Assembly (NCBI GenBank): GCA_964408435.1 | Contig: CAYOZL010000004.1 | Span: 1,839 to 65,838 of the forward strand | Direction: 5' to 3' | Source: an uncultured Bdellovibrionales bacterium | GTDB taxonomy: Bacteria; Bdellovibrionota_C; UBA2361; SZUA-149; CAYOZL01 | DNA: 64,000 nucleotides | Program-made: the position numbers and the translations under genes | Shown: positions 12,622 through 44,636 of the stretch, piece after piece | Layout of the letters: every line of letters begins with the position of its first letter | How positions within the stretch are numbered: the stretch's first letter is position 1 | Notes under the pieces: generated by a model | What the model was told of the DNA's origin: nothing | The model's database searches: none | The model's input: the letters and a program-made list of their open reading frames with translations, nothing else

Positions 12622-12629
12622 TTAAGCTT

Positions 12630-13433: not shown

Positions 13434-13602
13434 AACCTGCTAGCTAAGTCATTTAGCTAGGACACTCACTAATCAAAAATCATGCCAATACACTTCATTT
13501 CTATGCTAAGTAGCTATAAATCCTATGGAATTTCTAAGGAGTTTTATGTATTTAAGCTATTTTTAGCTTATGTCGTAGACATATATAAGGTAAGGTCTAA
13601 AT

Positions 13603-14755: not shown

Positions 14756-15160
14756 TTACTTCAAAAGTTCTCTTGTTCTAATTAAAAGAGCTTCTAACAA
14801 TTTAAGCTCTTCTTTACCCAGTGTTTTCTTAGAGCTTTCTATTACCTCAACAAGCAAGCTTTGAGCTCTCTTATACTCTCTAGTTGCGATAAAACAAACA
14901 GCAAGGCCAATTTTTGCAGAACTACTATATATCCCTTTTTCTATACATACTCTAAAGTGAGCACTAGCATCACTATAAAAACCTAGCTCTAATCTTACTA
15001 GGGCTAATCCTATCTTTGAAGGAGTAGAATTATTATCAACACAAGACAAGCCAGAGAATATTCTCTCTGCAGGAGCGAATATTCCTGTTTCATAGTACAT
15101 CCTGCCTAGTTCATATATAGAGTAGAATAAATCTACAGGATACTTCCCATTTTGATCCAT
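14756..15160 (-). CDS. TPR-type type III secretion chaperone-like protein
   Basis: 134 aa, all-helical, with three TPR-like units (YELGRMYYETGIFAPAERIF, GLALVRLELGFYSDASAHF, GLAVCFIATREYKRAQSLL). It is the last gene of the sct operon. Size and architecture resemble LcrH/SycD or YscG class chaperones. Confidence 0.5.
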   Translation of the reverse strand: MDQNGKYPVDLFYSIYELGRMYYETGIFAPAERIFSGLSCVDNNSTPSKIGLALVRLELGFYSDASAHFRVCIEKGIYSSSAKIGLAVCFIATREYKRAQSLLVEVIESSKKTLGKEELKLLEALLIRTRELLK

Positions 15161-15447
15161 GAAATCACCTGTTGTAACATTGATATTTCTTTTAAAGAGC
15201 TTTCCTGACTTGTTTCTGAATCAATAAGTTGCTCTAGGCGTTGCTCTAAAAACTCAAGAGAACCAGAAAGACTATTTAAATCTCCATGCTCTTTGAGTAA
15301 AACTGAAAAAGGAATAATAGATAACCTGCTTTTAAAATGAGAAAGCTCTTGTTCTTTAAGTCCCTTAACAACTGGTAGTTGCTTAGTCATGAATTGGTCT
15401 TTATTCTCGACCTCATTCTCTATCTTGTTATCGACCGTATCATCCAT
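15133..15447 (-). CDS. hypothetical 104-aa acidic protein in the sct operon
   Basis: Its start overlaps the sctU stop (ATGGATGA) and its 3' end overlaps the chaperone gene by 28 nt. No motif was recognised and NPTH is absent. Confidence 0.4.
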   Translation of the reverse strand: MDDTVDNKIENEVENKDQFMTKQLPVVKGLKEQELSHFKSRLSIIPFSVLLKEHGDLNSLSGSLEFLEQRLEQLIDSETSQESSLKEISMLQQVISWIKMGSIL

Positions 15448-16075
15448 ATCTTCTTGCCTGCTGCTCTCTCACTTCTGCCTGGTACTCTTCCTCTGTCATC
15501 ATATGATCAAATCTAAAACATAGCCAATTAATAAAATACGAACAAACTCCAAAAGATAAAAAGATAGTTGAAATTTTTAAAGAAAAACTCGCTAACATCT
15601 TTAACAAAACTTTATACTGAGAGATAAAATATGTTTTTCTGAAACTCAATAATATAAACTCTTCAAAAGAATTCTCAGCAATCCTAAATAGTATTAAAAC
15701 TAAAAGGATTAAACAGATTAAATGCAAGAAAGTATTTAAAGAAAGAATCTTTTTCGGCGAATAAAACCTAGAGAATCTAGGTACAACTAATCCAAGATTA
15801 AAATAAAATTTACTAAAAACTAAATTAACTAAATTCAATAAAAGCATTATGCTAAAAAACAAAAACAAAACTTTTATTAAAATATTATAATTTACAAATT
15901 GAATGTCTTCCTTGAAAAATAAATATTTAGAATAATCAAAATTACATATTAAATTTAAAAATAAACAAAATAAAAAAAACTTAATCGAGTTTAAAAAATA
16001 ATTACTTTTAACGAATATACCTTTGGCTTTTAAAGTTTTTAATTTACTTTCCGAAGCAGGGTATTTTTTATTCAT
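15440..16075 (-). CDS. sctU: type III secretion export apparatus protein SctU/FlhB, transmembrane domain only
   Basis: N-terminal SESKLKTLKAKGIFVKSNYF parallels the FlhB/SctU motif (E-x-PT-x-x-(R/K)-L-x-(K/R)-A-R-x-x-G-x-(V/I)-x-(K/R)-S). Four hydrophobic segments follow. It ends MMTEEEYQAEVREQQARRYG, just after the (M/L)(S/T)xxExKxExK linker. At 211 aa there is no NPTH autocleavage domain. Confidence 0.7.
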   Translation of the reverse strand: MNKKYPASESKLKTLKAKGIFVKSNYFLNSIKFFLFCLFLNLICNFDYSKYLFFKEDIQFVNYNILIKVLFLFFSIMLLLNLVNLVFSKFYFNLGLVVPRFSRFYSPKKILSLNTFLHLICLILLVLILFRIAENSFEEFILLSFRKTYFISQYKVLLKMLASFSLKISTIFLSFGVCSYFINWLCFRFDHMMTEEEYQAEVREQQARRYG

Positions 16076-16695
16076 TTTTTACTCTTAACATCTAATATTA
16101 ATTTTTGAGAATCAACGATTTCTTTAAAAATAGAGTTATAACTATCAAAAGATTGAACAAACACGAATAGAACTATAACTAGAGAAGATATTTTAAAAAA
16201 TGAATTGTTAATACTCTTATTTGAAATAAGAACAAGGCAAGTAAAAACTATGGCAGTAAACAAGGATAAAAATAGCAACTGCACTAAAGGTTGAAAAGAC
16301 ATGTCAAAAGATAAAGCACTCATCTTATCTAAACTAAAAGAACCTCCATTAAAGAAGTCTGTATAGCTATAAATATAAGAAAAATAATCTAATTTTAACA
16401 ACTGCACTAATAAATCTAGAGAAAAAAAGATTTGCACAGATTTCAATTTTGGAAAAAATAATCGGCTTGCTGTTTTACTATATAAATCAATAAATAGAAT
16501 CGGCATTGAAAAAAGTAAGCCTAAGGAAAAACCATGTAACAAATCAACTAACAAGTTTTGTTCGTAAAAAGACTTAGAAAAAATAAAGAAAAGCATTAGA
16601 AATGTTACTGAAATAAATAATTTATTTAAAAATAACCTTAAAATAAAAAAAGTTACAGTTAGAAATACCGTTAAAGATACGATCTCAACTTCCAT
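16072..16695 (-). CDS. sctT: type III secretion export apparatus protein SctT/FliR-like (very divergent)
   Basis: 207-aa polytopic protein lying exactly between sctS and sctU, with overlapping start/stop codons on both sides. The assignment rests on synteny and topology rather than motifs. Confidence 0.55.
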   Translation of the reverse strand: MEVEIVSLTVFLTVTFFILRLFLNKLFISVTFLMLFFIFSKSFYEQNLLVDLLHGFSLGLLFSMPILFIDLYSKTASRLFFPKLKSVQIFFSLDLLVQLLKLDYFSYIYSYTDFFNGGSFSLDKMSALSFDMSFQPLVQLLFLSLFTAIVFTCLVLISNKSINNSFFKISSLVIVLFVFVQSFDSYNSIFKEIVDSQKLILDVKSKK

Positions 16696-16936
16696 AGTAC
16701 TTCAAGCTACCCCACATATCTTTTGTAAAGTTTACAATTTGTTTCATCCAAGAATCTTTAAGAAAATAGACCAGGATAAATACAGAACTAAATTTAAAAA
16801 CAAACCCTAAGGATCTATCCTGTACTTGCGTGGCTACTTTAATAAGAGCAACTATGAAGCCAAGAATTCCAAGAAGTATAAAAACTGGCAACATTGAATT
16901 AAAAAATAATCTAAATGTATTTATTATTTCAGCCAT
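16685..16936 (-). CDS. sctS: type III secretion export apparatus protein SctS/FliQ
   Basis: 83 aa with a two-TM hairpin. VATQVQDRSLGFVFKF corresponds to the FliQ/SctS Q-(I/V)-Q-(E/D)-x-(T/S)-L-x-F-x-P-K block. It sits between sctR and sctT. Confidence 0.75.
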   Translation of the reverse strand: MAEIINTFRLFFNSMLPVFILLGILGFIVALIKVATQVQDRSLGFVFKFSSVFILVYFLKDSWMKQIVNFTKDMWGSLKYYGS

Positions 16937-16938
16937 TT

Positions 16939-17565
16939 CTATACGATATAAGACTTTATAAGATTAGTAGAAATAATAGCCCAGCCATCTACCGTTACAA
17001 ACAAAAGCAATTTCAGTGGGAGTGAGACTAAAAAGAAATCGATATTAACAATATCTAAGGCTGTTAATACCGTACTCACTATCAAGTCAATTAAGAGTAA
17101 GGGTAAAAATAAGGTTAATCCTAATTTAAACGCTTTTGTTATTTCAGAGATTACAAAAGCTGGCAGTAAAGTCCTTGAACTTGGATTATCCTCTGAATTT
17201 ATCTGCATAATTCTTTCAAGATGCTTTCTTTCTGTATTTTTCTCTAAAAATTCAGACCATTTAGAAGAAATTGAACTATATACTTCTTTTTTTTGGCTCT
17301 GATTTAAATCTTTGATACTGGTTGATTGATTAAGCTCTAAGTTTATATTTTCTATTGTAGGGTACATTACATAGAGTGCCAATGAGAAGGACAAAGAAGA
17401 AAGCACCAAGATAGATGGAATCCCTCTAAAACCTAAACCTAAGCTTAAAATATAAAGAACAACTGATATTTTAATAAAAGCACTAAAAAAAACTATTAGT
17501 GCAAATACCAAAAGTGCAGGCTCTAGATTTGAATACTGTGCTAAAAATTGAATAATAATATCCAT
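16939..17565 (-). CDS. sctR: type III secretion export apparatus protein SctR/FliP
   Basis: FIKISVVLYILSLGLG and LPAFVISEITKAFKLGLTLFLPLLLIDLIVSTVLTALDIV...LPLKLLLFVTVDGW match the two conserved FliP/SctR blocks. Confidence 0.85.
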   Translation of the reverse strand: MDIIIQFLAQYSNLEPALLVFALIVFFSAFIKISVVLYILSLGLGFRGIPSILVLSSLSFSLALYVMYPTIENINLELNQSTSIKDLNQSQKKEVYSSISSKWSEFLEKNTERKHLERIMQINSEDNPSSRTLLPAFVISEITKAFKLGLTLFLPLLLIDLIVSTVLTALDIVNIDFFLVSLPLKLLLFVTVDGWAIISTNLIKSYIV

Positions 17566-25400: not shown

Positions 25401-27573
25401 TTAAGTTTAACGTCCCAATAATCTCTGGCTTAAACTTATTCCCCACTTCTTCATACGCAACTGCCCTAACGACCCTTATTCCTCCAATTATCTCTGATAT
25501 GTAGTTTTGCACTGAAGATCTTATACCAGAGCTACACATTACTACTATTGGAGTAGAGCCTCTTTCAAGAACTGGTTTTATTACTCTTAAAAAACTTTCC
25601 CTAATCCCTGCTTCCTGACTTAATGATACTGTTTTAATTAGCTTATCATCATCACAGAGACTAATTGCACTTTCAAATGCTTCTTCTATATCACTAGAAA
25701 GTAAAATTACTCTAAGTTTATCACCATATGATAGACAATCTTTAACTATTTCTCTTGATATACTTTTTCTAATAAAATTATACATTTTATTTAGATAAAA
25801 CTTCCTATCATCATCATACTCATTCAGCGCCATAAACTCTATTGCAGATTCAGAAATTAATTTAAAATTCTTAACGCTAACACCTTCTTTAACCAATGCT
25901 TTAATTATTTCATTATATTCAGCCAGGCTTAACTTGTTATCTTTAAACAACTCCTCTCTAACATCCTTAGATAAAGCATTAATTAATTTTTTAGACTCTC
26001 CTATGCCAAAAGTTTTCTCAATCTCCGTGATAACCCCTGATAGTATTTTATTCGCTAAAACCTGATATGGTCTAAGAACAGGGATATTTATCTTATTTAA
26101 AGATTCATAGTTACTAGCACTGATGTCATTACTATACTTAATATAAGATACTTGATTTTTACTAAGTTCATTATCAGCAGTTTGAATAACTTCATAACCT
26201 AAAGAAGTTGCAATAGAATTTGAACAATTAAGACTAACCATATCCGTATAAATAAGACCTCTATCAATCTCATTTCCAGCCATTAAAATTTTAAATTCCT
26301 TAGCTTCGATATTTTCTGACATTAAAAATCTTACATTAGGTAACTTAACTCCTGAATTACTAAAATAATCTGACTTTACTGTCTCAATATAAGACTTAAT
26401 TTTGCTATAGTTATTTTCATTTTTAGAATCTTTAGACTCAAGATAACTAGCTAAATCTTTTCCTAACTCAATTATCACACCATCATGACCAAGTTGCTTT
26501 ATTGAATCTGACACATTCTCAACTTTTAATAACGCTGGGTTAGAACCTCCATTGAAAATATTACCAGTAAAAATATCTCTGTTAAAAATACTCTTATTGG
26601 GTTTCTTAAAATATAATAACAACGATAGTAGTGAAAAAATTAAAAAAGGAAGAAAAGGCATATTCAAAATGCCAAGCAAAGAGAACAAAAACAAAGCTGT
26701 AGTTAAAATACAAATTAACAGTAAGGCTTTTTTATCAAAAAATATTTGAGTGATAATTTGATCAAAAGAATCTGAACCCTCTTCAGAACCACCTACACCA
26801 TAGTCTACGCTACGAACTTTGCTTACTAAAAGTCCAGAGGAAACTGAAACAAACAAAGAAGGTATTATATTTACTAAACCAGCACCAATACTTAAAACTC
26901 CAAATGTATTTAATGAATCTTGAAAAATTAGCCCTCTGTAATAGCCAAGACCTACTCCTAATACAAGGCACATAAATGCTACAACGAATGTAAACAAAGC
27001 ATCTCCATGCACCCATTTCATTGCTCCATCAATAGAAGCATAAAATTGAGACTCTTGATTTAACTCCTTTCTTCTTTTACTCGCTTCATCTGCTGAAATT
27101 AAGTTTGCTCTTAAATCTGAATCAATTGCCATCTGCTTTCCTGGAATCGCATCTAAGGTAAACCGTGCAGAGACCTCTGCTACCCTAAGAGCCCCTTTTG
27201 AAATAACTAACAAATTAACCAGCCCTATAATGAGAAAAATTACTATTCCCACTATTGGGTCTGCCCCTGAAGCATAAACACCAAAAGCTTCTACAATTTT
27301 TCCAGCAACATCTGTTCCCTGATCCCCATAAGACAAAAGTAATTTTGAGATTGCTACAATAAGACAAAGTCTAAACAATGATGCTAAAACAATCATTGAT
27401 GGAAAAGAAAAAATTTCCGCTATTTTATTAGAAAGTAAAGATTTAATTAATATTACAATTGAAAATATAATATTTGCTAAAACAAAAAAATCTATTAAGG
27501 CTTTTGGCAGTTCAAATAAAAGCAAAGAAAAAAGTAATAATATAAAAACTGATAGTATTTTTATATTTGTCAT
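25396..27573 (-). CDS. sctV: type III secretion export gate protein SctV/FlhA
   Basis: FHIPEP-family N-terminal membrane domain (FSFPSMIVLASLFRLCLIVAISKLLL, DAIPGKQMAIDSDL, EASKRRKELNQESQFYASIDGAMKWVHGDA) and a large soluble C-terminal domain. 725 aa. Confidence 0.9.
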   Translation of the reverse strand: MTNIKILSVFILLLFSLLLFELPKALIDFFVLANIIFSIVILIKSLLSNKIAEIFSFPSMIVLASLFRLCLIVAISKLLLSYGDQGTDVAGKIVEAFGVYASGADPIVGIVIFLIIGLVNLLVISKGALRVAEVSARFTLDAIPGKQMAIDSDLRANLISADEASKRRKELNQESQFYASIDGAMKWVHGDALFTFVVAFMCLVLGVGLGYYRGLIFQDSLNTFGVLSIGAGLVNIIPSLFVSVSSGLLVSKVRSVDYGVGGSEEGSDSFDQIITQIFFDKKALLLICILTTALFLFSLLGILNMPFLPFLIFSLLSLLLYFKKPNKSIFNRDIFTGNIFNGGSNPALLKVENVSDSIKQLGHDGVIIELGKDLASYLESKDSKNENNYSKIKSYIETVKSDYFSNSGVKLPNVRFLMSENIEAKEFKILMAGNEIDRGLIYTDMVSLNCSNSIATSLGYEVIQTADNELSKNQVSYIKYSNDISASNYESLNKINIPVLRPYQVLANKILSGVITEIEKTFGIGESKKLINALSKDVREELFKDNKLSLAEYNEIIKALVKEGVSVKNFKLISESAIEFMALNEYDDDRKFYLNKMYNFIRKSISREIVKDCLSYGDKLRVILLSSDIEEAFESAISLCDDDKLIKTVSLSQEAGIRESFLRVIKPVLERGSTPIVVMCSSGIRSSVQNYISEIIGGIRVVRAVAYEEVGNKFKPEIIGTLNLT

Positions 27574-27618
27574 AATCTTACTCTAATAAAATAAAAACAC
27601 AAAAGTGTGTGATATTAA

Positions 27619-27654
27619 AAACTACATCTAACAAACTACAACAAAAAAACTACA
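27619..27654 (-). promoter_or_regulatory. three direct repeats AAACTACA (minus strand TGTAGTTT) at 14-bp spacing upstream of sctV
   Basis: Exact 8-mers at 27619-27626, 27633-27640 and 27647-27654, in the 153-bp tadC-sctV gap, 46-81 nt upstream of the sctV ATG (27573). Confidence 0.5.
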
Positions 27655-27726
27655 CTGAAATAACAAGACTAATAAGTAAAACTAAACAATGATACTGAAA
27701 ATAAAGAGAATATTTTATCTAAAGAG

Positions 27727-28629
27727 TTAACTAAATGCATTCATTATTCTTATCGCAATCCCAGCGAACAATAAAGCGAAAAAACCCATAAAGACCATCG
27801 CAAGTGGTCCAGTAGCTTTAACTGGCAATTGTGTGATTTTTGCCTCTACCTGAACTTGTCTTTGCATCATTACAGAATCAGCTAACTCTTGTAGCTGCTT
27901 AGAAACTTCTCCACCATGTCTAGAACACTGAGCTAAGAACATAAAAGCATGCTTTACTTCAACAGAACCATTTGCATCACCTACCTCAACTAAAGCATCT
28001 TCAAGACTTAAACCTGAACGCATTAACTTCGTGGCATGAGAAATCATTTCAGTTACTGCATTATGAGCATCTCTTTCATCTGCCATTTCAATGATATTTG
28101 AAAGACAAGGCCCAACATCAAGAGAACTACTTACACCAATAGAAACCTGCTCAATTACTAATGGAAGAAAATACATTACATCTTCATCTCTTCTTTTGAT
28201 TTCTCTATCCAACCAAAAACTAGGAATTACAAAACCACCAAGCCCACCGATTGCGATACACAATACTGCTAGCTTCGCATTACTTGTTAGATAGTAAGCA
28301 GCTAAAGGAATTCCAATTACACTAATTATAAAAGATTTAATTCTAAATCTTAAAAACCAAGCTCTATCTGCAGCAGTAAAATATCCCGCTTTAAATAGTC
28401 TAACGCTTAAATCATCACCCTTTTTTTTCTTTTTATTTTTATGATTTTTCTTACTTATTTTCTTAACGTCATTAAGAGTTTCCTCATTTGCAATTTTTGA
28501 TGAGGACATCAGTTCTCTTAATTCTGTAGTTTGTCCTTTTGAGCCACCTAAAAAGGCATATGCCATAACAGCAAATCCTAGAACTCCTAAGAAGCTAGCA
28601 ACTACTATAAAAATTTGAAATAAATCCAT
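27727..28629 (-). CDS. tadC: Flp pilus assembly inner-membrane platform protein TadC (GspF-like domain)
   Basis: N-terminal TM, a cytoplasmic helical T2SF-type domain (YFLPLVIEQVSIGVSSSLDVGPCL...) and C-terminal TMs. It is the second of two paralogous platform genes after cpaF. Confidence 0.75.
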   Translation of the reverse strand: MDLFQIFIVVASFLGVLGFAVMAYAFLGGSKGQTTELRELMSSSKIANEETLNDVKKISKKNHKNKKKKKGDDLSVRLFKAGYFTAADRAWFLRFRIKSFIISVIGIPLAAYYLTSNAKLAVLCIAIGGLGGFVIPSFWLDREIKRRDEDVMYFLPLVIEQVSIGVSSSLDVGPCLSNIIEMADERDAHNAVTEMISHATKLMRSGLSLEDALVEVGDANGSVEVKHAFMFLAQCSRHGGEVSKQLQELADSVMMQRQVQVEAKITQLPVKATGPLAMVFMGFFALLFAGIAIRIMNAFS

Positions 28630-28630
28630 T

Positions 28631-28656
28631 ACACAAACCCTACAAAATAAACCTAC
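28631..28656. repeat. two tandem 13-bp units with a GTAGG core immediately upstream of the tadC ATG
   Basis: Plus strand reads acacaaaccctac (28631-28643) and aaaataaacctac (28644-28656). Minus strand reads GTAGGTTTATTTT GTAGGGTTTGTGT, followed directly by A and the ATG (start at 28629). Confidence 0.6.
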
Positions 28657-28682
28657 GTGTTAAATAAACACAAAAAAAACTT

Positions 28683-29690
28683 TTAAACCTTAATATTAGC
28701 AACCTTATTAGACCAATGAAAACCAATAAAAATACACATTATTCCATATTGAAATATCTTTAAACCTAATGGGTTGGAAAAAGCTGGAAATACTAACTGT
28801 GGAGCAGTCCAAGCCATGTAACATAAAAGTAAAGCCATAACTAAAGCGATCAGTTTAAGAGAAGATTTCTCTAATCCAATAGCTGCTACTGCTTTTTTTC
28901 TAAATTCTTGTCTTTTTCTTACTTGCTTAGCTAACCTTTCTAAAGTGTTACTTAAAGTTCCACCGACTCTTTTACTTAGTATTAAACTTTGTACGAATAA
29001 TTCTAATTCAGGATGAGCAACATCTTCACCAAATGCACTTATTGCTTGCTCTTCAGTCATTCCAAGCCTTAGTCTTTCAACTAACAACTCAACTTCCTCT
29101 CTTACTAAGCAGTCCTCATCTAAACCCTTTGCTGCTGCATCAAGACCTTGAATCGGGCTCATTCCTGTTTTTAATAAACTTACAAACGACATTAATAACA
29201 CTGGATAATCTTTATCAAATGCCATAAAACGCTTTTTAATCGCTTTATCTAAAATCGATGTTGGAATAACAATACCCATAAATATAGCAAGTAAAACAAT
29301 AAATACAGTTGCTAAATTATAGGCAGGAATTGCTAAAAAGACCGCAAGGAATACTTGAATAGCTCTAAATTGCATTTCAGTTAATGGCCATTTAGCGTAC
29401 TTAAGTTTTTTCGCTAAATCTATTTGAGAACTATTAGAACCTCTCTTATCAACATCACCTTCAGAGGCTGCAGCAATTGCTAAATTATTTGCAGTAGTTT
29501 TTTGAAACTTCTCTCCTGTTAATCTTGCTTCTGCTCTTGCATCCCTTTGAGCTGTAACCATATTTCTAAGATTAGTACTTACGGCTTTAGTGGTATTTTT
29601 ACTCTTATTATCTGATAATGATAATGCGAATACAATTAGGCCAACAATTAGAATAACCAGAACAATGATGCCAAGAACAATTAGGTTCAC
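28683..29690 (-). CDS. tadB: Flp pilus assembly inner-membrane platform protein TadB (GspF-like domain)
   Basis: Topology and T2SF-type helical domain (PVLLMSFVSLLKTGMSPIQGL...). Its start overlaps the cpaF stop by 4 nt. Confidence 0.75.
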   Translation of the reverse strand: MNLIVLGIIVLVILIVGLIVFALSLSDNKSKNTTKAVSTNLRNMVTAQRDARAEARLTGEKFQKTTANNLAIAAASEGDVDKRGSNSSQIDLAKKLKYAKWPLTEMQFRAIQVFLAVFLAIPAYNLATVFIVLLAIFMGIVIPTSILDKAIKKRFMAFDKDYPVLLMSFVSLLKTGMSPIQGLDAAAKGLDEDCLVREEVELLVERLRLGMTEEQAISAFGEDVAHPELELFVQSLILSKRVGGTLSNTLERLAKQVRKRQEFRKKAVAAIGLEKSSLKLIALVMALLLCYMAWTAPQLVFPAFSNPLGLKIFQYGIMCIFIGFHWSNKVANIKV

Positions 29691-31111
29691 TTCTTTTCTC
29701 CATCCACAGTTGGAACCTGACTTGCTCCTCCAAAACCTAGAAACTTAGGAGCATCTCCAAGATAAATTCCATTTCTTTCTAATACCTCTTCATAAAAACT
29801 TGAATAAGAAAGAACTTCCCACATTGGATTCTCACCTTCTTGAACAAGCTTAAACATTGGTCTAATTTGGATATTTCCTTCAACGAAATTACCCACTTCT
29901 ACAACTTCTGCCATTCTTACACGTCCAGTTGCTCTTTCTCGGTATTGCCAAATAACGACATCAACTGCTTGTGCAATCTGTTGTCGAATAATGTCCATTC
30001 CAACTCCTCTTTGAGCTCGACCGAGTAAACTTTCTAATCTTGTTAGAGTTTCTCTTGCATTTCTTGCATGCACTGTAGACATTCCACTGTGACCAGTTTG
30101 TGCAGCTTCTAAAAATGCTTCTGCTGCCTCTGGTGTTCTCATCTCTCCAAGAATCACTCTCGTAGGACAAAGTCTAAGAGTAGTTCTAATATGGTCTGAT
30201 AAACTAACCGCACCTGCTCCCTCTGAGTTTGGAGACCTTGATACTAAGCTTCTAAAATATGGGTGCCCATAATTTAATTCAGGAGTATCTTCTACAGCAA
30301 TTACAGCCTCATCTGCTCTAAACTGCGTTCCAAGAGATCTCATCAATGTCGTTTTTCCAGTTCCAGTCTCTCCAGAAACCATAAAAGTATGTTCAACTGT
30401 TCTAGTTAATGCAGCTAGATAGTTAACCATTAAAGGAGGAGCAACTTGATAAGAAACTAAACTTTCTAGTGTTGCTTCTGAAACTCTTGGAACACGCATT
30501 GTAAACAATGGTCCTCTAGCTCCACAAACACTTTTATGCACAGCACATAATCTTTTACCATCAGGGAAAGATGCATCAACGGTATGCTGTTGCGTAGATA
30601 AAGACTTACCTAGCCTAAATAAAATTCTATCGATAAAAGTTGCATATGCCTCAGGACTTGGCCAACGAATACTTGTTGCTTCACTCATTTTACCCCTTTG
30701 TAAAATAACTGATTGATAATCATAACAATGAATATCAGTAACTTCAGGGTTATCTACTAAAGGCTGCAATACTCCCCAACCCAATAAATCTTGTTTCAGA
30801 TGAACAATAATATCTGCTCTAGCAATATCATCTATTTGTAAAGAATTCTCGGCACAAACTTTATCAACTGCATTCGCTATTTGATCTTCAGATACCTCAC
30901 CATCTTTAATCTCCACACCTTCATCACTATTTCCAAGCTCTCTTCTAGCTTCTTTTAAAACCTTGTTTGCTATTGGTGTAAGAGAGGTCTCTGCTGGGCT
31001 ACTAGTAGCAGGTAGTGATAATTCACTATTACTTGGTTTTACAACCTTTTTTCTTTCATCGCTTGCCCTCGTAGAGAACAAACCCATTAAAGCATCATCT
31101 TCTTTTGACAT
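29687..31111 (-). CDS. cpaF: Tad/Flp pilus secretion ATPase CpaF/TadA
   Basis: VVDNPEVTDI, Walker A SGETGTGKTT, Asp/Walker B blocks IAVEDTPEL and RVILGEMR, and His box GHSGMSTVHA match the CpaF/VirB11-like traffic ATPase family. Confidence 0.9.
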   Translation of the reverse strand: MSKEDDALMGLFSTRASDERKKVVKPSNSELSLPATSSPAETSLTPIANKVLKEARRELGNSDEGVEIKDGEVSEDQIANAVDKVCAENSLQIDDIARADIIVHLKQDLLGWGVLQPLVDNPEVTDIHCYDYQSVILQRGKMSEATSIRWPSPEAYATFIDRILFRLGKSLSTQQHTVDASFPDGKRLCAVHKSVCGARGPLFTMRVPRVSEATLESLVSYQVAPPLMVNYLAALTRTVEHTFMVSGETGTGKTTLMRSLGTQFRADEAVIAVEDTPELNYGHPYFRSLVSRSPNSEGAGAVSLSDHIRTTLRLCPTRVILGEMRTPEAAEAFLEAAQTGHSGMSTVHARNARETLTRLESLLGRAQRGVGMDIIRQQIAQAVDVVIWQYRERATGRVRMAEVVEVGNFVEGNIQIRPMFKLVQEGENPMWEVLSYSSFYEEVLERNGIYLGDAPKFLGFGGASQVPTVDGEKK

Positions 31112-31156
31112 AACCCTTACCTACCTCAATATTAACCTATGTAAGCTTCCTATATA

Positions 31157-32092
31157 CTACTCTGCACCTGCAAAACTTCTATCTAATGTCCACTTACCAC
31201 TTTTAAGAATATACCTAAGCTGCCTGCCACTTCTTGGGTCAGATGTATACATTACGCCATCATTAGCAACTTCTGCTTTTGGTCCTTCTGCTTGCTTACC
31301 TATGATATGTGCCATAGTAACAACATCAGCTTCGCCGTTAGATATATTTGTCTCAGAATCACCAACTAGTGATAAACTAATTTCACCATTAGACCTTGCT
31401 AACTCAATTTTCTTCGCATCTCTTTCAGTAACAAGTAAAGTTATATTAGTTCCTTTTTTAATAGCTACTTTTTGACCAACTACATTTGTATATCCACCAA
31501 CAGAAAGAATTTTGATAAATCTTGCAATAGTAGCAATCTTAGTCTCACCACGTTGTTTATAAGTTAAAAGCACATCAACTCTACTATTAGGTTTAGCAAA
31601 ACCTTCTACCCCTTTTCTATCATCAACTGTAATAGATACAGCTCTATAGCCTGGAGGAATTGTAATTGCATTTAATGGAGGATTATCAGAAATATCATCT
31701 AAAACTAATGGCATATTTGAATTGATTAATCTTGAAGAAAATTTACCAACTATTAGTTCTAAATCCTTAGCCCTAATTACAGCCATTGGAGTTTTATCCG
31801 GGTCCATCGCCTGTGGAGAGAATAATTCTGGACTGATTTGAGTCCCTTCTTCAATTCTAGTGTTCGCAATTAAAACATCAATCACGCCTGTATTAAGCTT
31901 TGGAGCTTCAGGAGCTGTTGCTACTACTTCAGTTTCATTCTGTGTAGCATCTGTTTTTTGAGCAATCACTATTACCGCGATAACTAAAACTGCGATAACT
32001 GCTGCGAGACAACCTATTACCCACTTAACTTTTGTAGCGTACTGCTGAGCCTGTGAACTCACGCCTCCAAATTTATTATTATTCCTTCTCAT
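31157..32092 (-). CDS. cpaB: Flp pilus assembly protein CpaB/RcpC
   Basis: N-terminal TM anchor, a SAF-like domain (VIDVLIANTRIEEGTQISPELF), then beta-rich repeats (RAVSITVDDRKGVEGFAKPNSRVDVLLTY). It lies between flp and cpaF. Confidence 0.75.
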   Translation of the reverse strand: MRRNNNKFGGVSSQAQQYATKVKWVIGCLAAVIAVLVIAVIVIAQKTDATQNETEVVATAPEAPKLNTGVIDVLIANTRIEEGTQISPELFSPQAMDPDKTPMAVIRAKDLELIVGKFSSRLINSNMPLVLDDISDNPPLNAITIPPGYRAVSITVDDRKGVEGFAKPNSRVDVLLTYKQRGETKIATIARFIKILSVGGYTNVVGQKVAIKKGTNITLLVTERDAKKIELARSNGEISLSLVGDSETNISNGEADVVTMAHIIGKQAEGPKAEVANDGVMYTSDPRSGRQLRYILKSGKWTLDRSFAGAE

Positions 32093-32275
32093 TTTACTTA
32101 GCCTTAATTATAAAAAAAATTATAAACCTGTTCTATAGATGCTAAATCGGTAAGAAACGGCTCAAAACTTTAATTATAAGAGAGCTTTTCAAAAAAAAAG
32201 GCCTACTAAAATAGTAAGCCTTTGATATCTATGTATATTAAAATATTAAATATACGAGAAATATTTAAATATTTC

Positions 32276-32461
32276 TTAGTTAGTAGTTGCGTCTAATGTA
32301 TTACCAATTGAATCAAACTTCTCACTAACCTCTTCCCCTAAAAATGTTACAGCAGCAATCGCTACAACTGCGATTAATGCTACCATTAATGCGTATTCTA
32401 CCATTGTAGCACCTTTTTCTTCAGTAACTACTGTTTGCTTGATAACTTTTTGATTATCCAT
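32276..32461 (-). CDS. flp: Flp family type IVb/c pilin
   Basis: 61 aa. EEKGATMVEYALMVALIAVVAIAAV is the Flp motif (G/xTxxEY plus a hydrophobic helix). A strong RBS aagaggag lies upstream. Confidence 0.9.
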   Translation of the reverse strand: MDNQKVIKQTVVTEEKGATMVEYALMVALIAVVAIAAVTFLGEEVSEKFDSIGNTLDATTN

Positions 32462-32501
32462 GCCTTTATAACTCCTCTTTTAATTAAGCTTAAATTTATA
32501 A

Positions 32502-32512
32502 GCGCTTAGCGC
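32502..32512. promoter_or_regulatory. GC-rich 11-bp palindrome in the flp leader/promoter region
   Basis: gcgcttagcgc is a perfect palindrome around a central T. It lies ~40 nt upstream of the flp ATG and is the only GC-rich block in an otherwise AT-rich 180-bp gap. Confidence 0.3.
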
Positions 32513-32640
32513 CATAAATACTACTATAAATAAACAACTTTATTTGCAAGAAATAAAATCTCCGTATTTATGACGATTATAATATCAAAAAGGATTCTTT
32601 AAATACTAAACTTATTTTAAAAAGCAACAAATTTAGCTAC

Positions 32641-33885
32641 TTACTCATTTGATTCTGGGGTGCTCGCTGGTAATAGTCTTTCCCACCAATTTGAATTAGA
32701 TTTCATATTATCTATTTCCTCACCTTTTTCAATCAAATTAAGCTCTGATGCTATCTGTTCTAATGTTGCTTTAGTGGAGCGTTGTCCTAGCTTATAAAGA
32801 GTAGCTCCACTACCAGGCCATAAGCTTGCTTTAGCATCTGTTGCTAAAGGAGGTAATCTCCATGGGCGTGAGCCCAACTTGTGCACAAGTTCTAATTCAG
32901 CTTCAATTTGTGGCAAAGCAGAGAGCGCACCAGTATAACCATTTACTAAAAATGTTATTCTTTCAGTTCCAACTACCAATGCTTTTACATAAGTTAAATA
33001 TAAATCTAATGCTGTGAGACCTAAAACAGAATCATCTATAACTACCAGAACTTCGTCTGCTGCTCTCATTAGAGCACCTGTTGCAGGGCCAATTCTACCA
33101 CCTACATCAATGATGATAACATCATGCATTACTCTAGCTAATTCTAAAATTCTCTGGCAAATATTTATACCATCTGTATGACAGACTAAATCCATAGCTT
33201 CTGCCATTCCATCAGGTGGCATTAAAACAGATACGTCTTCACTAACAGGAATTAATGCATCACAAATACTATCTCTAGATATTTCTCTTGAACCATTTAC
33301 CCAGCTAGAAACTGTCTTCGCCTCAGTTCCATTAACTGTTAATGCTCTACATAAATCTCTAGTTTCTACGTCTAAATCCCAAATCAATGTTCTTTGTTTA
33401 AAAACACTACAAACCTCAGCTAAAGCTGCACATACTGAAGTTGCACCTGTCCCACCTTTTGCATGAGTTACAACAATAATTTTAGCTTCTCTTACTCTAC
33501 CTTCTTTTCTAAATTCAGCATAAATCGCTACTAATTCTTGTAATAAATCTAGTGGAGATGAATCATCAGGTAATACTTTTCTAACACCTGCGGCATGAGC
33601 AGATCTAAAAGCTCCTCCTGAATAAGCCTCTTCAGTTACAAACATAACAATATGTAACCAAGGCATATGAGATAAAGCTGTTCTTGCTATTTGAGAAGCA
33701 GTATCTCCTAATCCAGAGCCAAGAATTAAAACATCAGCATCTTGCATCTGAGACATAAAATCCCTGTCATTTACAAGCTTAACTCTTAAATCCAACATCT
33801 CGACATCACTGTGAGAAAACGAATCTATCCTTCTAGCACACAGTGCTTGCCCTTCAGCTGAATTATCTACAATTAATACTCTCAT
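32641..33885 (-). CDS. tadZ: Tad pilus localisation/assembly ATPase TadZ/CpaE (receiver-like N-domain plus MinD/ParA-type ATPase)
   Basis: N-terminal MRVLIVDNSAEG...DVLILGSGLGD is a CheY-like fold. The deviant Walker A is VVTHAKGGTGATSVCAALA, with DLD...IIIDVGG blocks. Confidence 0.8.
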   Translation of the reverse strand: MRVLIVDNSAEGQALCARRIDSFSHSDVEMLDLRVKLVNDRDFMSQMQDADVLILGSGLGDTASQIARTALSHMPWLHIVMFVTEEAYSGGAFRSAHAAGVRKVLPDDSSPLDLLQELVAIYAEFRKEGRVREAKIIVVTHAKGGTGATSVCAALAEVCSVFKQRTLIWDLDVETRDLCRALTVNGTEAKTVSSWVNGSREISRDSICDALIPVSEDVSVLMPPDGMAEAMDLVCHTDGINICQRILELARVMHDVIIIDVGGRIGPATGALMRAADEVLVVIDDSVLGLTALDLYLTYVKALVVGTERITFLVNGYTGALSALPQIEAELELVHKLGSRPWRLPPLATDAKASLWPGSGATLYKLGQRSTKATLEQIASELNLIEKGEEIDNMKSNSNWWERLLPASTPESNE

Positions 33886-33998
33886 CTAATTACACCCAAT
33901 CATTGTCTCTATTAACTGATATCGACTTCTCATTATAATTTCTTGAAAACTTATTTAGGGTTGTTGAGCAACAACAAAAATGCAGTAATTTTAGGTAC

Positions 33999-35180
33999 TT
34001 ACAAAGAGTCGAAGAATCCAGGTCGATAGTGATTAACTAGAGAAAGCGCTAGACCTAGCCATATAAAAAAAACAAAAATCCAAAGTAAAACAGTGCCAAA
34101 GCTAATTTTCTTTTTAACCTTATTACCTTTAATAGATTTCACCCTACTAAGTAATAATTCATTTGTTTTTAACTGCACTTCTGATGAAATCGATTTAACT
34201 ATCTCCGCAGTAGACTTACCTCTAGATACTTTTTCTATAAAATCTCTTAATTGGGTTTTACCTTTCTTTGCTATTTCAATAAGGCTAAACTCTTCTTCTT
34301 TAATAGAACTTTCTTCAATAGAACTCGGTAGCTCAATAGACATTTGCTTAGATAAAGATTTAAGATCTTCTAATATCAAATTAGCATTCTGATATCTTTT
34401 CTCTGGATCCTTTTCTAAACATTTAAAAACTATTTTTTCTAATTCGGCTGGGCAGTCTTCTCTATACGTTAGCAAACTTTCTGGATCTTGCTTAAGTTTT
34501 TTCTGCATTATTTCAATTAATGTTTCGCCATCAAAAGGCGAATGCAGACTAATCATTTCATAAGCAAGAACACCAAAAGAAAAAATATCGGATCTCCGAT
34601 CAACTTGATTATTAGCTAAATACTCAGGAGAAACATACTCGATTGTTCCAATTACACCACCATGGTCTGTTAATCTAGGGCCTGTAAGATTTCTTACTAT
34701 TCCAAAATCTGCAATTTTTACATCTGATTCTGACGTTAAAAGAATATTCTCAGGCTTTAAATCTCTATGAACCAATCCAGCTTCATGAATCGCTTCAAGA
34801 CCTGAAATAATTTGAGCAAAAATTTTAAAAATTTCCTTATATGTTAAGTGCCTATTCTTCTCTAATAAATCGGCTAAATCCCCACCATCAACAAACTCCA
34901 TTGAAAAAGCAATAAAATCTTCTTCTTCTACAAATTCATATGCTTTAACTACATTTGGATGACTAATTCCGTATGAGGCATAAATCTCATTTTTAAATCT
35001 AGCTGAAAGAACACTATCATTTGCAATTTCATTAAATAACACTTTTAAGGCAACAATATGATCTGGTATTTCTTTATGAGTACAAGCATAAACCATCCCC
35101 ATACTACCAGCTCCTAAGCTTCTAATAACTTCGTACTTATTTGCAACTATTGAGCCTACTTGAAGATTTACAAATGACAT
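33999..35180 (-). CDS. Hanks-type serine/threonine protein kinase, C-terminal TM anchor
   Basis: The complete motif set is present: LGAGSMGMVY, VALKVL, HRDLKPENILL, ADFGIV, EYVSPEY, DIFSFGVLAYEM. C-terminal TM is VLLWIFVFFIWLGLALSLV. Confidence 0.9.
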   Translation of the reverse strand: MSFVNLQVGSIVANKYEVIRSLGAGSMGMVYACTHKEIPDHIVALKVLFNEIANDSVLSARFKNEIYASYGISHPNVVKAYEFVEEEDFIAFSMEFVDGGDLADLLEKNRHLTYKEIFKIFAQIISGLEAIHEAGLVHRDLKPENILLTSESDVKIADFGIVRNLTGPRLTDHGGVIGTIEYVSPEYLANNQVDRRSDIFSFGVLAYEMISLHSPFDGETLIEIMQKKLKQDPESLLTYREDCPAELEKIVFKCLEKDPEKRYQNANLILEDLKSLSKQMSIELPSSIEESSIKEEEFSLIEIAKKGKTQLRDFIEKVSRGKSTAEIVKSISSEVQLKTNELLLSRVKSIKGNKVKKKISFGTVLLWIFVFFIWLGLALSLVNHYRPGFFDSL

Positions 35181-35277
35181 TTTTTAGTAATACCGTATTA
35201 AGTTGGCTAATGAAATAAATTTGTGAGGTAAGTTTAAGAAATGATGACTCAATAAAGCCAAACTAGAGAATAAAAAG

Positions 35278-36345
35278 CTATATCTTTGGTAATAAGAAAA
35301 CAAAAAATTCTCTTTCTCCAATACGTAATATGTCTCCATTTCCTACAGTTTCAAGTCCTCCAGCCACTTGTATCTCTTCATTAGTTCCAGATCTAATGAT
35401 TGCAGTTCCATACTCAGAAAGTTGGTCCATAATTTGTATTTTATTATCTTTAGTTGTTCTAAGAATAGCATGTAAAGGAGATACACTTTCATGTTCTATG
35501 AGCATATATTCACCATGGTCTGTTGGTCTTGAGGTGATTAGTTTTCTACCTTTTCTGATTTGAAAAACCTCTCCATTTCTATCATCATCATAACTAATTA
35601 AAAAACCTATTATTAAAGACTGACCTTTCATAGGAGCAGAACTATTAGGAGCATGAACTATATTTTTTTGAACAGTATAATTTTGATCTGTGCTTACTTG
35701 CTGAGAGCTAGCCTGCACTTTCATATTATTTTGCATACTAGGTGTGTTACTATTCAGTATAGAATCCTGTCTTGTAGGCTTTCTAGTTCTAGGTTTTCTA
35801 GCAATCGGGTTTTGAGGTTTTTGACTTCTAGGAGCAGAACTCAGACCTTGATTCTGCGGAGCTAGTGAAGTTAAAGGATCAAAGGTTTTTGGCACATTTG
35901 GTTGTGGCAAATTAAAACCATCAACAGACTCAACTGGCTTAGGGGCATTGGGTTTTAATACATCCTCAAGCTCTTCTCTTGTTATTTTTGTTGTTCTTGA
36001 CCTATTAACACTTTTTCCAAATTTAAGACCTGTTGATTGTTGCTCTAGTTTTGCTTTGGTTATTGCTTTTTGATTCTCTAACTTCTTATCAGTTATCTCT
36101 TCTTTAGCTTGATCTAATAAGCCGTGCTTTACTATTCCCTGCTTTATTCTACTCTGTCCAGGTTTTACATAATCATCTTTCTCTATCTTTTTTTCTTCTT
36201 TTGCTAAAGCATCCCTAACTTCTCCAGTAATATCAGCTGAGAACATTACGGTTCTATTTCTAGCTCTAGATACTTTACTAATTTTCAATTCTTCTTTTTT
36301 AGTATCTATTTCTTTACTCTCTATTTCTATATTTTCATTATCCAT
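35278..36345 (-). CDS. disordered N-terminal region plus C-terminal FHA-domain protein
   Basis: The C-terminal domain (GFLISYDDDRNGEVFQIRKGRKLI...SPLHAIL...YGTAI...GDILRIGEREFFVFLLP) aligns block by block with the C-terminus of 20422-21519. Confidence 0.7.
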   Translation of the reverse strand: MDNENIEIESKEIDTKKEELKISKVSRARNRTVMFSADITGEVRDALAKEEKKIEKDDYVKPGQSRIKQGIVKHGLLDQAKEEITDKKLENQKAITKAKLEQQSTGLKFGKSVNRSRTTKITREELEDVLKPNAPKPVESVDGFNLPQPNVPKTFDPLTSLAPQNQGLSSAPRSQKPQNPIARKPRTRKPTRQDSILNSNTPSMQNNMKVQASSQQVSTDQNYTVQKNIVHAPNSSAPMKGQSLIIGFLISYDDDRNGEVFQIRKGRKLITSRPTDHGEYMLIEHESVSPLHAILRTTKDNKIQIMDQLSEYGTAIIRSGTNEEIQVAGGLETVGNGDILRIGEREFFVFLLPKI

Positions 36346-36368
36346 CTGTTTGAATCCTTTTCATACTT

Positions 36369-37352
36369 CTATAAGAGCTTTAAAACTAAGAATACCAAAG
36401 CAGCTAATAAAATTAATCCAGCTGCAATAACAAATAATATTTTTTTCTTTTTGCTTTTATCTAAATTTGAATCTGGATCAACTACAGGGTTTTTAGTTGT
36501 AAGAGTAGAAGATGTAGTAAAAACACCTTTTTTCTTTGGAGGTTCTATACTAGCTTTAGTCTCATCTCTTTCAGTCTTTAACTCACCAGAAATCGGTAAA
36601 ACAGTTAGTGTAATATTATCAAATCCACCTCTGTTTCTTGCTAGCTCAACTAAATTAACACAAGCTTTTTGTGGAGAAAAATTGTTAATTTGATATGCTA
36701 TTTCAGGATCTGTAACTAAACTATACAGACCATCCGTGCATAACAATAAATAGTCTTTAGCATCAGCATTATCCCAAATCCAAAAACTACTAGTTTCTAA
36801 TCCTAATCTTGGCTGTGCGCCCAGACACTTTGTTAATACATGAGATTGAGGATGAGAAAGAGCTTCTTCTGCACTGATATTACCTCTATCAACTAAGTCT
36901 TGAACATAAGTATGGTCTTTTGTTAGTTGTCGAATTTCACCTTCTCTAACTAAATATGCTCTAGAATCCCCAGCGTGAGTTATCACAATTTGATCATTGT
37001 TAATTATTGCACCAACAACAGTAGTTCCCATTGAACTAAACGCTGGATTTTGTCTTCTAAGCAAGATTATTCTATTTGCTTCATCAATTGAAGACTTCAG
37101 AGCTTGCACAGAATTTGCGAACTCCCCTGTTTCAAAAACTCTTCTAATGGCATCAATTGCTAACTGTGCTGCTAGTTCACCTCCAAGTGCCCCCCCCATT
37201 CCATCACAACAAATCCAAGCCCTTCCATTAACGGAATCTATTACGGCATAGCGATCTTCATTGATCTCTCTTTCACAGCCAATATCAGTAATAGCAGCTG
37301 GAATCTTCTCGTTTTCTTCTTCGTTTGTAACCAATGGTTCTTGTGTTTCCAT
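36369..37352 (-). CDS. PP2C-family Ser/Thr protein phosphatase, C-terminal TM anchor
   Basis: NEDRY, CDGMGG, MGTTVV, GDSRAY, LLCTDGL and GGFDNITL are the PPM motifs. TM is ILFVIAAGLILLAALVFLVL. Confidence 0.9.
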   Translation of the reverse strand: METQEPLVTNEEENEKIPAAITDIGCEREINEDRYAVIDSVNGRAWICCDGMGGALGGELAAQLAIDAIRRVFETGEFANSVQALKSSIDEANRIILLRRQNPAFSSMGTTVVGAIINNDQIVITHAGDSRAYLVREGEIRQLTKDHTYVQDLVDRGNISAEEALSHPQSHVLTKCLGAQPRLGLETSSFWIWDNADAKDYLLLCTDGLYSLVTDPEIAYQINNFSPQKACVNLVELARNRGGFDNITLTVLPISGELKTERDETKASIEPPKKKGVFTTSSTLTTKNPVVDPDSNLDKSKKKKILFVIAAGLILLAALVFLVLKLL

Positions 37353-44626: not shown

Positions 44627-44636
44627 AAGGAATATT

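Follow-up and report, generated by a model that had tools for sequence, protein, structure and literature searches.

A stretch of 64,000 nucleotides from an uncultured Bdellovibrionales bacterium (contig CAYOZL010000004.1; the whole stretch is called the window below) carries a block of open reading frames (ORFs) in which genes for a Tad/Flp pilus, for a reduced type III secretion system (T3SS) as well as for a set of kinase, phosphatase and FHA-domain proteins follow one another on a single strand. We read the block as a physically fused, further reduced variant of the pairing of a Tad system with a needle-less T3SS, in a lineage previously not known for it. The case that it encodes two envelope machines working as one coupled, phospho-regulated apparatus, chromosomal and vertically inherited, is judged to be evenly balanced. 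The arrangement of the block is not a chance one.

The block comprises 23 ORFs at 14756-37352, all intact and all on the minus strand, and the ORF listing agreed exactly with the coordinates given by the sequence-only reading, which had been made without database searches. The short gaps and many overlaps that it described were also seen, with inter-ORF gaps of -28 to +183 nt and overlaps in seven neighbouring pairs. Domain identities were taken from Pfam scans covering nearly all window ORFs of at least 90 aa and from NCBIfam profile scans, and these confirmed nearly all of the gene-by-gene labels. The limits of the block were drawn correctly for these 23 ORFs but not for the conserved unit, which in relatives runs on beyond 14756 to 10849. 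At 10849-14753 the unit of about 10849-37352 thereby gains two genes for FliA-like sigma factors, one for an ArnT-like glycosyltransferase and an ORF of 98 aa.

Gene neighbourhoods were compared in eleven contigs from other samples (numbered with the prefix L below), each covering part of the block, with about 10 kb visible per side. Every one showed the same gene order over the part covered, across a GC range of 32-60% and SctV identities down to about 31%. The first part of the full order is PP2C-FHA-STK-TadZ-Flp-CpaB-CpaF-TadB-TadC-SctV, and the second continues from SctV through pseudokinase-HEAT, multi-FHA, FHA, SctJ, the 75-aa protein, an SctO-like protein of about 157 aa and SctQ to SctRSTU. 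The junction between the two halves, tadC (T2SSF) followed by sctV, was present in eight related contigs, again with SctV identity down to about 31%. The gap measured 153 nt in the window and 14-227 nt in L002, L004, L007, L095, L096, L097 and L099; the shortest, both on the same strand, were 14 nt in L007 and 33 nt in L095. The same order, including the Tad-sct junction, was found in L099, which belongs to the sister branch of the SctV clade. An adjacency not conserved in relatives had been named beforehand as grounds for seeing two ordinary systems; the adjacency was in fact kept in all eight contigs, L099 among them. Conserved gene fusion or adjacency is a classic genomic signature of functional coupling.

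The genes of the Tad half and the first gene beyond the junction are as follows.
32641..33885, minus strand: TadZ/CpaE-like ParA/MinD ATPase with a receiver-like N-terminal domain (AAA_31 E 5e-12; CpaE_hom_Actino E 1.6e-12)
32276..32461, minus strand: Flp prepilin, 61 aa, with a G/ATMVEY cleavage motif (Flp_Fap E 7e-13)
31157..32092, minus strand: CpaB/RcpC periplasmic pilus assembly protein (TIGR03177 118 bits, cutoff 71; RcpC E 3.9e-21)
29687..31111, minus strand: CpaF/TadA pilus motor ATPase (T2SSE E 1e-33; TadA family 212 bits)
28683..29690, minus strand: TadB platform protein (T2SSF E 3.3e-14)
27727..28629, minus strand: TadC platform protein (T2SSF E 4.2e-9)
25396..27573, minus strand: SctV/FlhA-family export gate, 725 aa (FHIPEP E 9e-127)

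The Tad/Flp core set is therefore present (Flp with G/XXXXEY, CpaF/TadA, TadB, TadC, TadZ/CpaE and CpaB/RcpC) and, as in the Tad systems of Caulobacter and Aggregatibacter, it stands in the usual order. Unlike the canonical systems, the locus has no RcpA/CpaC, TadV/CpaA, TadD or TadE/F/G and is joined directly to sctV. The lack of an RcpA/CpaC secretin and a prepilin peptidase had been noted from the sequence; neither was found in the block, in the remaining 41 kb of the window or, as RcpA/CpaC and TadV/CpaA, in the related loci, and no TadD pilotin or TadE/F/G minor pilins were found in the locus. CpaB and the G/XXXXEY motif of Flp imply that a secretin and a prepilin peptidase are encoded somewhere in the genome. 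Two extra genes in L004, considered as prepilin peptidase candidates, were ruled out by their sequences. In L097 (8937-9938) there is apparently one T2SSF (TadB/TadC) gene between cpaF and sctV, not two.

The SctV protein of the window retains the invariant core RVAEVxARFTLDxxPGKQxAID. It scored 386 bits against the hrcV profile and 376 bits against FlhA, both far below the cutoffs. A word-index search with SctV over 5.8 billion clusters returned only about 10 close relatives, followed by ordinary FlhA at about 28% identity. An exhaustive hidden Markov model (HMM) search of 1.84 billion representatives gave about 35-40 sequences at 600-1055 bits, above the FlhA/SctV plateau at about 585 bits. 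A scan of genome contigs with the clade alignment relied on patterns that every FlhA shares, and it brought up ordinary FlhA/SctV only, at no more than 31% identity.

A tree of SctV/FlhA only was built from 182 sequences by neighbour-joining, a distance method, with YscV, MxiA, rhizobial and Hrp2 SctV and a Chlamydiales SctV as references. The 40 SctV representatives, counted at 50% identity, formed one clade (100/100 bootstrap) apart from both FlhA and the injectisome SctV group, which was itself separate at 64/100. A grouping of the clade with the injectisome (non-flagellar, NF) sequences was never recovered (0/100). The Chlamydiales SctV (L045) was placed in the NF group, outside the present clade, and the sole Myxococcota SctV/FlhA sampled (L050) was placed among FlhA. 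Judged from these sequences, the clade is a deep third branch of the SctV/FlhA family. The SctV phylogeny that had been proposed for placing the system among the known T3SS families has thus set it apart from FlhA and injectisome SctV alike. The earlier assignment to a non-flagellar T3SS (NF-T3SS) lineage stands as far as the SctJ-type lipoprotein goes but was not borne out by the SctV tree; the non-flagellar affinity derives only from that lipoprotein, the YscD-like FHA domain and the LcrH-like chaperone.

The other type III genes, with the small ORFs among them, are listed below.
19427..20266, minus strand: SctJ-type inner-membrane ring lipoprotein (TIGR02544 94.5 bits versus 26.7 for FliF; YscJ_FliF E 1.8e-12)
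19200..19427, minus strand: 75-aa helical protein that marks the system (identity across the clade 44-77%; AF2 pLDDT 86.7)
18718..19188, minus strand: candidate SctO/FliJ-like two-helix coiled-coil stalk, 156 aa (AF2 hairpin; immediately upstream of sctQ)
17726..18721, minus strand: SctQ/FliN-like SPOA-domain protein, 331 aa (five-orthologue profile against YscQ-C/FliN, E 0.01-0.02, residues 196-263)
16939..17565, minus strand: SctR/FliP (FliP E 3.7e-43)
16685..16936, minus strand: SctS/FliQ (Bac_export_3 E 3.9e-10)
16072..16695, minus strand: SctT/FliR by position and orthology (Bac_export_1 in three of five positional orthologues, best E 2.7e-8)
15440..16075, minus strand: transmembrane (TM) part only of SctU/FlhB (Bac_export_2, residues 2-206, equal to profile positions 2-223 of 335)
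15133..15447, minus strand: 104-aa protein paired with the TPR chaperone, a possible co-chaperone or substrate (one ORF with the TPR protein in L094)
14756..15160, minus strand: LcrH/SycD-like class II T3SS chaperone with TPR, 134 aa (TIGR02552 E 3.8e-12; CdsG E 1.5e-5; SctY E 6e-4)

The export apparatus proteins SctR, SctS, SctT and SctV are present, SctT being recognised via orthologues: the label given to it earlier is upheld by its positional orthologues, but the window copy itself matched no HMM. SctJ has the lipobox LISC, a C-terminal TM helix at 234-252 and a short cytoplasmic tail, and its TIGR02544 score of 94.5 lies below the equivalog cutoff of 161.95. The label SctQ-like, assigned at first from the sequence, agreed with the SPOA profile match, and FliMN_C matches were found in the orthologues. 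The ORF first described as coiled-coil was predicted to fold as a hairpin of two helices (H3-67 and H71-155), and Pfam FliJ matches to its orthologues were weak in L007 and L096 and faint in L095. A fold search with this hairpin gave unspecific coiled-coil matches only, with nothing beyond topology. Fold search, PDB sequence search and Pfam all left the 75-aa protein without a significant match. Its candidacy as an analogue of the FliG N-domain, binding the SctJ tail, was rejected, as there was no Pfam or PDB match and FliG appeared only at rank 32 (E 7.9) in the fold search. The AF2 models of the 75-aa and 156-aa proteins are single-sequence models.

The description of SctU as TM only proved apt beyond the window. 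The protein stops just past the fourth TM helix and an MTxEE linker, and the C-domain with the NPTH autocleavage site and substrate-switch function is gone. The same truncation was seen in 4/4 clade members (the window and three orthologues) aligned with a Burkholderia SctU. The 104-aa ORF was considered as a detached SctU C-domain, which sequence and alignment ruled out, and it had no family match in Pfam or NCBIfam. In L094 (12608-13303) its family and the LcrH-like TPR chaperone instead form a single 231-aa protein. By this Rosetta-stone evidence the two window proteins are predicted to interact, and the 104-aa protein may be a co-chaperone or a cargo.

The conserved gene order, the junction and the shared losses support the coupled reading, and the LcrH-like chaperone, its fusion, the SPOA domain and the FliJ-like hairpin are features of an export-competent system. 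The same observations bear on the view that the sct half is a decaying, non-functional relic of a flagellar or injectisome locus, which is very improbable. Many canonical parts are indeed missing, the sct proteins evolve fast, and SctT and SctU of the window are barely recognisable. Set against this, all genes are intact and stand in the same order on every related contig across deep divergence, the invariant SctV motifs are kept, and the 75-aa protein is strongly conserved. The domain losses are identical among members, not random. Identical losses in otherwise intact genes, together with the retained SctV core and the conserved 75-aa protein, argue against decay.

Parts of a conventional machine were sought in the window and the related loci. 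Searches by tblastn with Shigella and Pantoea fragments (two SctN fragments; MxiD and SctC fragments) found nothing for SctN or SctC at E<=1 in the window and 11 loci, about 250 kb in all. No scanned window ORF matched the Pfam families ATP-synt_ab or Secretin. The SctN/SctL ATPase complex was absent from the window and related loci, and no ATPase, secretin or peptidase was found in the 10 kb downstream of sctU in L093, L094 and L098. The block and window had no flagellar FliF/FliG/FliM switch, rod, hook or filament genes, no FliI and no full FlhB. No SctD with periplasmic ring-building domains was found either: the only membrane protein matching YscD_cpl has its sole TM helix at 408-426 of 434 residues and so has no periplasmic domain. 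The sequence-only reading had listed SctN, SctC, needle and rod proteins, gatekeeper, translocators and the periplasmic SctD domain as absent, and none came to light in the block or the remaining 41 kb.

These absences would be explained if an ordinary injectisome and an ordinary Tad system were each split over several loci, with SctN, SctL, SctC, needle, TadV and RcpA elsewhere. The view taken here covers 64 kb of the genome and about 10 kb per side in relatives, and CpaB and the Flp motif imply that a secretin and a prepilin peptidase exist somewhere. An SctO-like stalk usually partners an ATPase, which also counts in favour of splitting. Split NF-T3SS and split Kil systems are documented (PMC3459982, PMC8460266), likewise in Chlamydia, and there are two kil clusters. 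However, no sctN or sctC was found in the approximately 250 kb of clade sequence, SctV falls outside the injectisome group, the SctU switch domain is gone in 4/4 orthologues, and the SctD-like protein lacks a periplasmic ring domain. The two truncations make a needle-building, secretin-docking injectisome unlikely even with an ATPase. Split systems are therefore improbable, although an ATPase may still be encoded elsewhere.

The signalling set is distributed at the head of the block and between sctV and sctJ.
36369..37352, minus strand: PP2C Ser/Thr phosphatase with a C-terminal TM anchor at 305-323 (PP2C E 2.6e-16)
35278..36345, minus strand: 355-aa protein, disordered in its N-terminal part, with a weak FHA domain at the C-terminus (FHA E 0.0048)
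33999..35180, minus strand: active-type Hanks Ser/Thr kinase, 393 aa, with a C-terminal TM anchor at 364-382 (Pkinase E 8e-60)
22853..25327, minus strand: pseudokinase-HEAT protein, 824 aa, with a single TM helix at 326-344 (Pkinase C-lobe E 8e-11; HEAT_2)
21546..22850, minus strand: tail-anchored multi-FHA protein, 434 aa, like the cytoplasmic part of SctD (FHA E 1.2e-28, two stretches; Yop-YscD_cpl E 4.6e-16)
20422..21519, minus strand: 365-aa protein with a Zn-ribbon, a low-complexity linker and a C-terminal FHA domain (UPF0547 E 4e-6; FHA E 5e-8; Yop-YscD_cpl E 1.5e-7)

By sequence motifs, one locus thus holds a competent kinase, a PP2C domain and FHA readers. The motifs of the 393-aa kinase are intact (G-loop, VALK, HRDLKPEN and DFG), and orthologues of the phosphatase occur in L007 and L097 at 57% identity. 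In contrast to this canonical kinase, all seven aligned orthologues of the protein first labelled a degenerate kinase have lost the glycine loop, the VAIK lysine and the catalytic-loop Lys and Asn, and DFG is degenerate, so that the label is well founded. The gene was always found directly after sctV in relatives' loci, and the HEAT-repeat domain of its product (about 470 aa) is probably periplasmic. The block encodes three FHA-domain proteins and a weak fourth. The earlier count of three FHA domains in the 434-aa protein was matched by Pfam for two clear domains, but its N-terminal third remained unverified. The 355-aa protein is a paralogue of the Zn-ribbon-FHA protein, as shown by tblastn cross-matches to the Zn-FHA genes of relatives. 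In the JGI copy of the window contig (L001, 16055-17057), 95 extra nt in the low-complexity linker of the Zn-ribbon-FHA gene leave two called ORFs (216 and 103 aa) instead of the single unbroken 365-aa ORF; the two public versions of the sequence differ here in their assembly.

Four genes extend the conserved unit downstream of the block, and a fifth gene flanks it upstream.
14457..14753, plus strand: conserved ORF of 98 aa that converges on the block and is coupled to the gene for the 285-aa sigma-like protein (tblastn: L093, L094)
13603..14460, plus strand: FliA/WhiG-like sigma-70 family protein, 285 aa (sigma70-ECF E 1.5e-11; FliA_WhiG E 1.9e-8)
12630..13433, minus strand: second FliA/WhiG-like sigma factor, 267 aa (sigma70-ECF E 1.2e-14; FliA_WhiG E 7e-13)
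10849..12492, minus strand: ArnT/PMT_2-like GT-C membrane glycosyltransferase, 547 aa, the last conserved gene (ArnT model E 3e-15)
37498-38841, plus strand: 447-aa polytopic membrane protein with a weak MauE-like match, divergent from the PP2C gene

The window, L093, L094 and L098 share the pair of sigma gene and ORF of about 100 aa, the second sigma factor and the glycosyltransferase. The 285-aa sigma protein is 62-88% identical in the three contigs and the 267-aa factor, in the same position, 52-83%, while the orthologues of the glycosyltransferase have PMT_2 matches. In L098 the position of the 98-aa ORF is taken by a 107-aa ORF of 33% identity. Beyond the glycosyltransferase, L098 has DUF4124 and RNase PH neighbours as in the window, and L006 (contig k141_3484606, 32 kb; protein P0132) carries a ClpA orthologue of 69% identity on the same contig as its Tad/T3SS block. 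These conserved neighbours point to vertical inheritance of the unit at about 10849-37352. No relative of the 447-aa membrane protein was detected in any related locus, so its gene probably marks the upstream edge.

The sigma genes raise the alternative that the type III gate works for the pilus or for the regulation of the pilus, exporting pilus or tip proteins or an anti-sigma factor in the manner of the flagellar FlgM checkpoint. Two FliA/WhiG-like sigma genes and the 98-aa ORF are conserved beside the gate, a gate that lacks a switch is in keeping with a single class of substrate, and in Myxococcus the pilus tips depend on T3SS* (PMC12075869). A family scan and a PDB profile search gave no support for the 98-aa ORF as a FlgM-like anti-sigma factor, the block has no minor pilin or tip genes, and the LcrH-type chaperone points to hydrophobic, translocator-like cargo. 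We regard this alternative as quite improbable, slightly more so than split systems.

Outside the block, the window is made up of housekeeping genes (ClpA, aat, RNase PH, tRNA-Pro, transaldolase, oligopeptidase F, the histidine operon, pheA/tyrA and polysaccharide chain-length genes), which makes the block chromosomal with no obvious island. Pfam scans of this remainder found no F1-type ATPase, secretin or A24 peptidase. The contig originates from a marine (BBAY) metagenome, its lineage is uncultured, and the GC content of the window is about 32%. The best named match of the window ClpA was a metagenome-assembled genome labelled 'Bdellovibrionales bacterium' (57% identity), followed by assorted 'Deltaproteobacteria'. 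On the weak taxonomy of these ClpA matches, the host lineage is probably deep, Bdellovibrionota-like or 'deltaproteobacterial', and diderm. The compact histidine operon (42258-48182, plus strand: hisD, hisB, hisG, hisH, hisF, hisA/hisE) lies where the GC skew is locally reversed; this operon and pheA/tyrA at 60874-62499 together point to a biosynthetically competent, not strongly reduced organism. At 55401-60250, two minus-strand genes, one for a GNVR polysaccharide chain-length determinant and one for a ParA-like tyrosine-kinase-type ATPase, adjoin a plus-strand gene for a 750-aa multi-TPR protein; together they suggest a locus for exopolysaccharide export at a distance of about 18 kb from the block.

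The sequence-only reading had recognised no described system in this arrangement. That calls for qualification, since the Kil system and T3SS* of Myxococcus and the 'Myxo' NF-T3SS are close precedents; a study by Thiery (2022) is reportedly among those on the Myxococcus pair. [quoted passage not shown] The two co-localise at prey contacts, the recruitment of T3SS* needs Kil, and the authors propose one larger complex with pilus tips in place of a needle (PMC12075869, PMC10433427). The kil clusters are FHA-rich, and their FHA proteins were read as relays of a contact signal (PMC8460266). According to a 2025 review, co-occurrence of Kil and T3SS* is apparently restricted to Cystobacterineae (PMC12428579); Bradymonabacteria are reported to encode both (PMC11509652). 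No description of a single Tad-plus-type-III locus was found in the literature searched, whose limited coverage makes this no proof of absence.

The present block resembles Kil/T3SS* in pairing a Tad-type motor with a type III apparatus that has no secretin, needle or translocon, and in its abundance of FHA proteins. Both also have LcrH-like chaperones, SctJ, SctQ and SctRSTUV (T3SS* as defined in PMC10433427). The Myxococcus genes lie at three separate loci, whereas here they form one co-directional block. The T3SS* locus of Myxococcus has SctN, SctL, SctI and SctD, in contrast to the present block with no ATPase, no periplasmic SctD and no SctU C-domain, and Kil cluster 1 has the secretin KilC and the peptidase KilA, neither of which was seen here. 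Compared with Myxococcus, the present block adds the Hanks kinase, PP2C, the pseudokinase-HEAT protein, TadZ and two sigma factors.

The second precedent is the basal secretin-less 'Myxo' NF-T3SS described in Cystobacterineae by Abby and Rocha in 2012 (PMC3459982). It is likewise secretin-less, found in 'deltaproteobacterial' predators and long retained, and was interpreted as a translocation device predating contact-dependent injection (PMC3459982). In contrast, the ATPase is retained in the 'Myxo' loci and the inner rod in the short one, and the system was reported only from Cystobacterineae (PMC3459982). In the SctV tree the present clade stayed apart from the NF-T3SS sequences. The partial precedent that had been seen in chlamydial T3SS loci is real in its shared features, an FHA-bearing inner-ring protein (CdsD) and a kinase gene (Pkn5) near sct genes, but the Myxococcus systems fit better, and the chlamydial systems, unlike the present block, are complete injectisomes with SctN, SctC, needle and full-length SctU. 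For the signalling set, the closest likeness is to the Pseudomonas H1-T6SS (PpkA/PppA/Fha1), where a membrane Hanks kinase, a PP2C phosphatase and an FHA scaffold are likewise encoded inside a secretion locus. The machine is a different one, and the present block has four FHA proteins plus a pseudokinase whose large HEAT domain is probably extracytoplasmic. By this analogy, the kinase/PP2C/FHA set suggests post-translational, contact- or envelope-triggered assembly.

Of the three readings offered with the first description (an inner-membrane-only export gate, two machines under one phospho-regulatory regime and a composite apparatus), the evidence favours a mix of the first and third. In the proposed working, the membrane-anchored Hanks kinase and PP2C would set the threonine-phosphorylation state of their targets. 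The four FHA proteins would read this state and, with the pseudokinase-HEAT protein, nucleate the gate beside the Tad platform. The gate, having no ATPase, needle, secretin or switch of its own, would export one chaperoned class of substrate across the inner membrane, powered by the proton-motive force with SctV working together with the SctO-like stalk. Flagellar export can reportedly run on the proton-motive force by way of FliJ-FlhA when FliH/FliI are missing (Minamino and Namba 2008; Paul et al. 2008). Contact or an exit route could come from the CpaF-driven Flp pilus, threaded through an outer-membrane secretin whose gene, like that of the peptidase, would lie elsewhere, and the two dedicated FliA-like sigma factors would drive expression. 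The logic would be the same as that proposed for Kil and T3SS* in Myxococcus, hard-wired into one locus.

Several points weigh against the coupled reading. That genes lie side by side in the same orientation is no proof of physical or functional coupling. Neither the window nor the related loci showed a secretin, a prepilin peptidase, minor pilins or a gate ATPase, and no substrate or effector was recognised in the block. The likeness to Kil/T3SS* is one of gene content and published descriptions and may reflect homology or analogy, and KilF has an N-terminal FHA domain (PMC8460266), whereas the 474-aa CpaF here had no FHA match at E<=0.01. The two halves also differ strongly in evolutionary rate, which is unusual for SctV: in the same genomes, identities are high for Tad proteins (TadZ 72-90%, CpaF 70-88%) and sigma factors (52-88%) and low for sct proteins (SctV 31-69%, SctJ 26-75%, SctQ 20-51%). 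In a promoter and terminator scan whose overall counts were not above shuffled controls, only the sites flanking flp stood out: the best match to a sigma-70-like promoter (32603-32576) and, with a 12-bp stem, the strongest of the terminator-like hairpins (32223-32197). Highly expressed pilin genes typically show such bracketing, with read-through into the genes for assembly. With its own promoter-like and terminator-like sites, flp indicates that the block may hold several transcription units.

The rates and the flp sites would also fit two independent machines, a Flp pilus and an inner-membrane type III-like exporter that share a neighbourhood and the kinase/phosphatase/FHA and sigma regulation. 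Further in keeping with this, the sct half tolerates insertions. The sctQ-sctR gap (17565-17726, 160 nt in the window) is a recurrent insertion point in relatives, holding a Glucosamine_iso (6-phosphogluconolactonase-like) gene in L004 (19687-20430) and L006 (9949-10695), and a Peptidase_U32 gene with a methyltransferase gene in L098 (6665-9857). In Myxococcus, moreover, Kil kills without T3SS* (PMC12075869). Against independence, the SctV clade keeps the exact tadC-sctV junction throughout, its sister branch included, despite the range in GC content, no member was seen with the sct half alone, and a gate by itself has no outer-membrane passage. Independent machines are thus a possible account, though on the unlikely side.

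A stronger form of the coupled reading, put forward tentatively and with no great expectation, is a chimeric nanomachine in which a type III gate without ATPase, needle, secretin-docking ring or switch is integrated with a Tad motor. The pilus and its secretin would be the conduit to the outside, CpaF and the proton-motive force the sole sources of energy, and threonine phosphorylation would gate assembly. If true, this would be a previously unrecognised class of nanomachine, and a living example of a secretin-less ancestral NF-T3SS that reaches the surface by borrowing a type IV filament system.

The finding bears on open questions in predation and injectisome evolution, namely whether Kil and T3SS* are one machine and how a gate without needle and secretin releases its cargo. 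Tad and sct sets kept joined at the same junction in a separate and diverse lineage lend independent support to the idea of a joint machine. The clade is rare but diverse (about 40 SctV representatives at 50% identity, GC 32-60%). With no ATPase, switch domain or periplasmic SctD in the locus, the system is smaller than that of Myxococcus and helps to define a minimal parts list. The pseudokinase-HEAT protein, the tail-anchored multi-FHA protein, the 75-aa protein, the kinase/phosphatase pair and the two sigma factors are the candidates for coupling and signalling.

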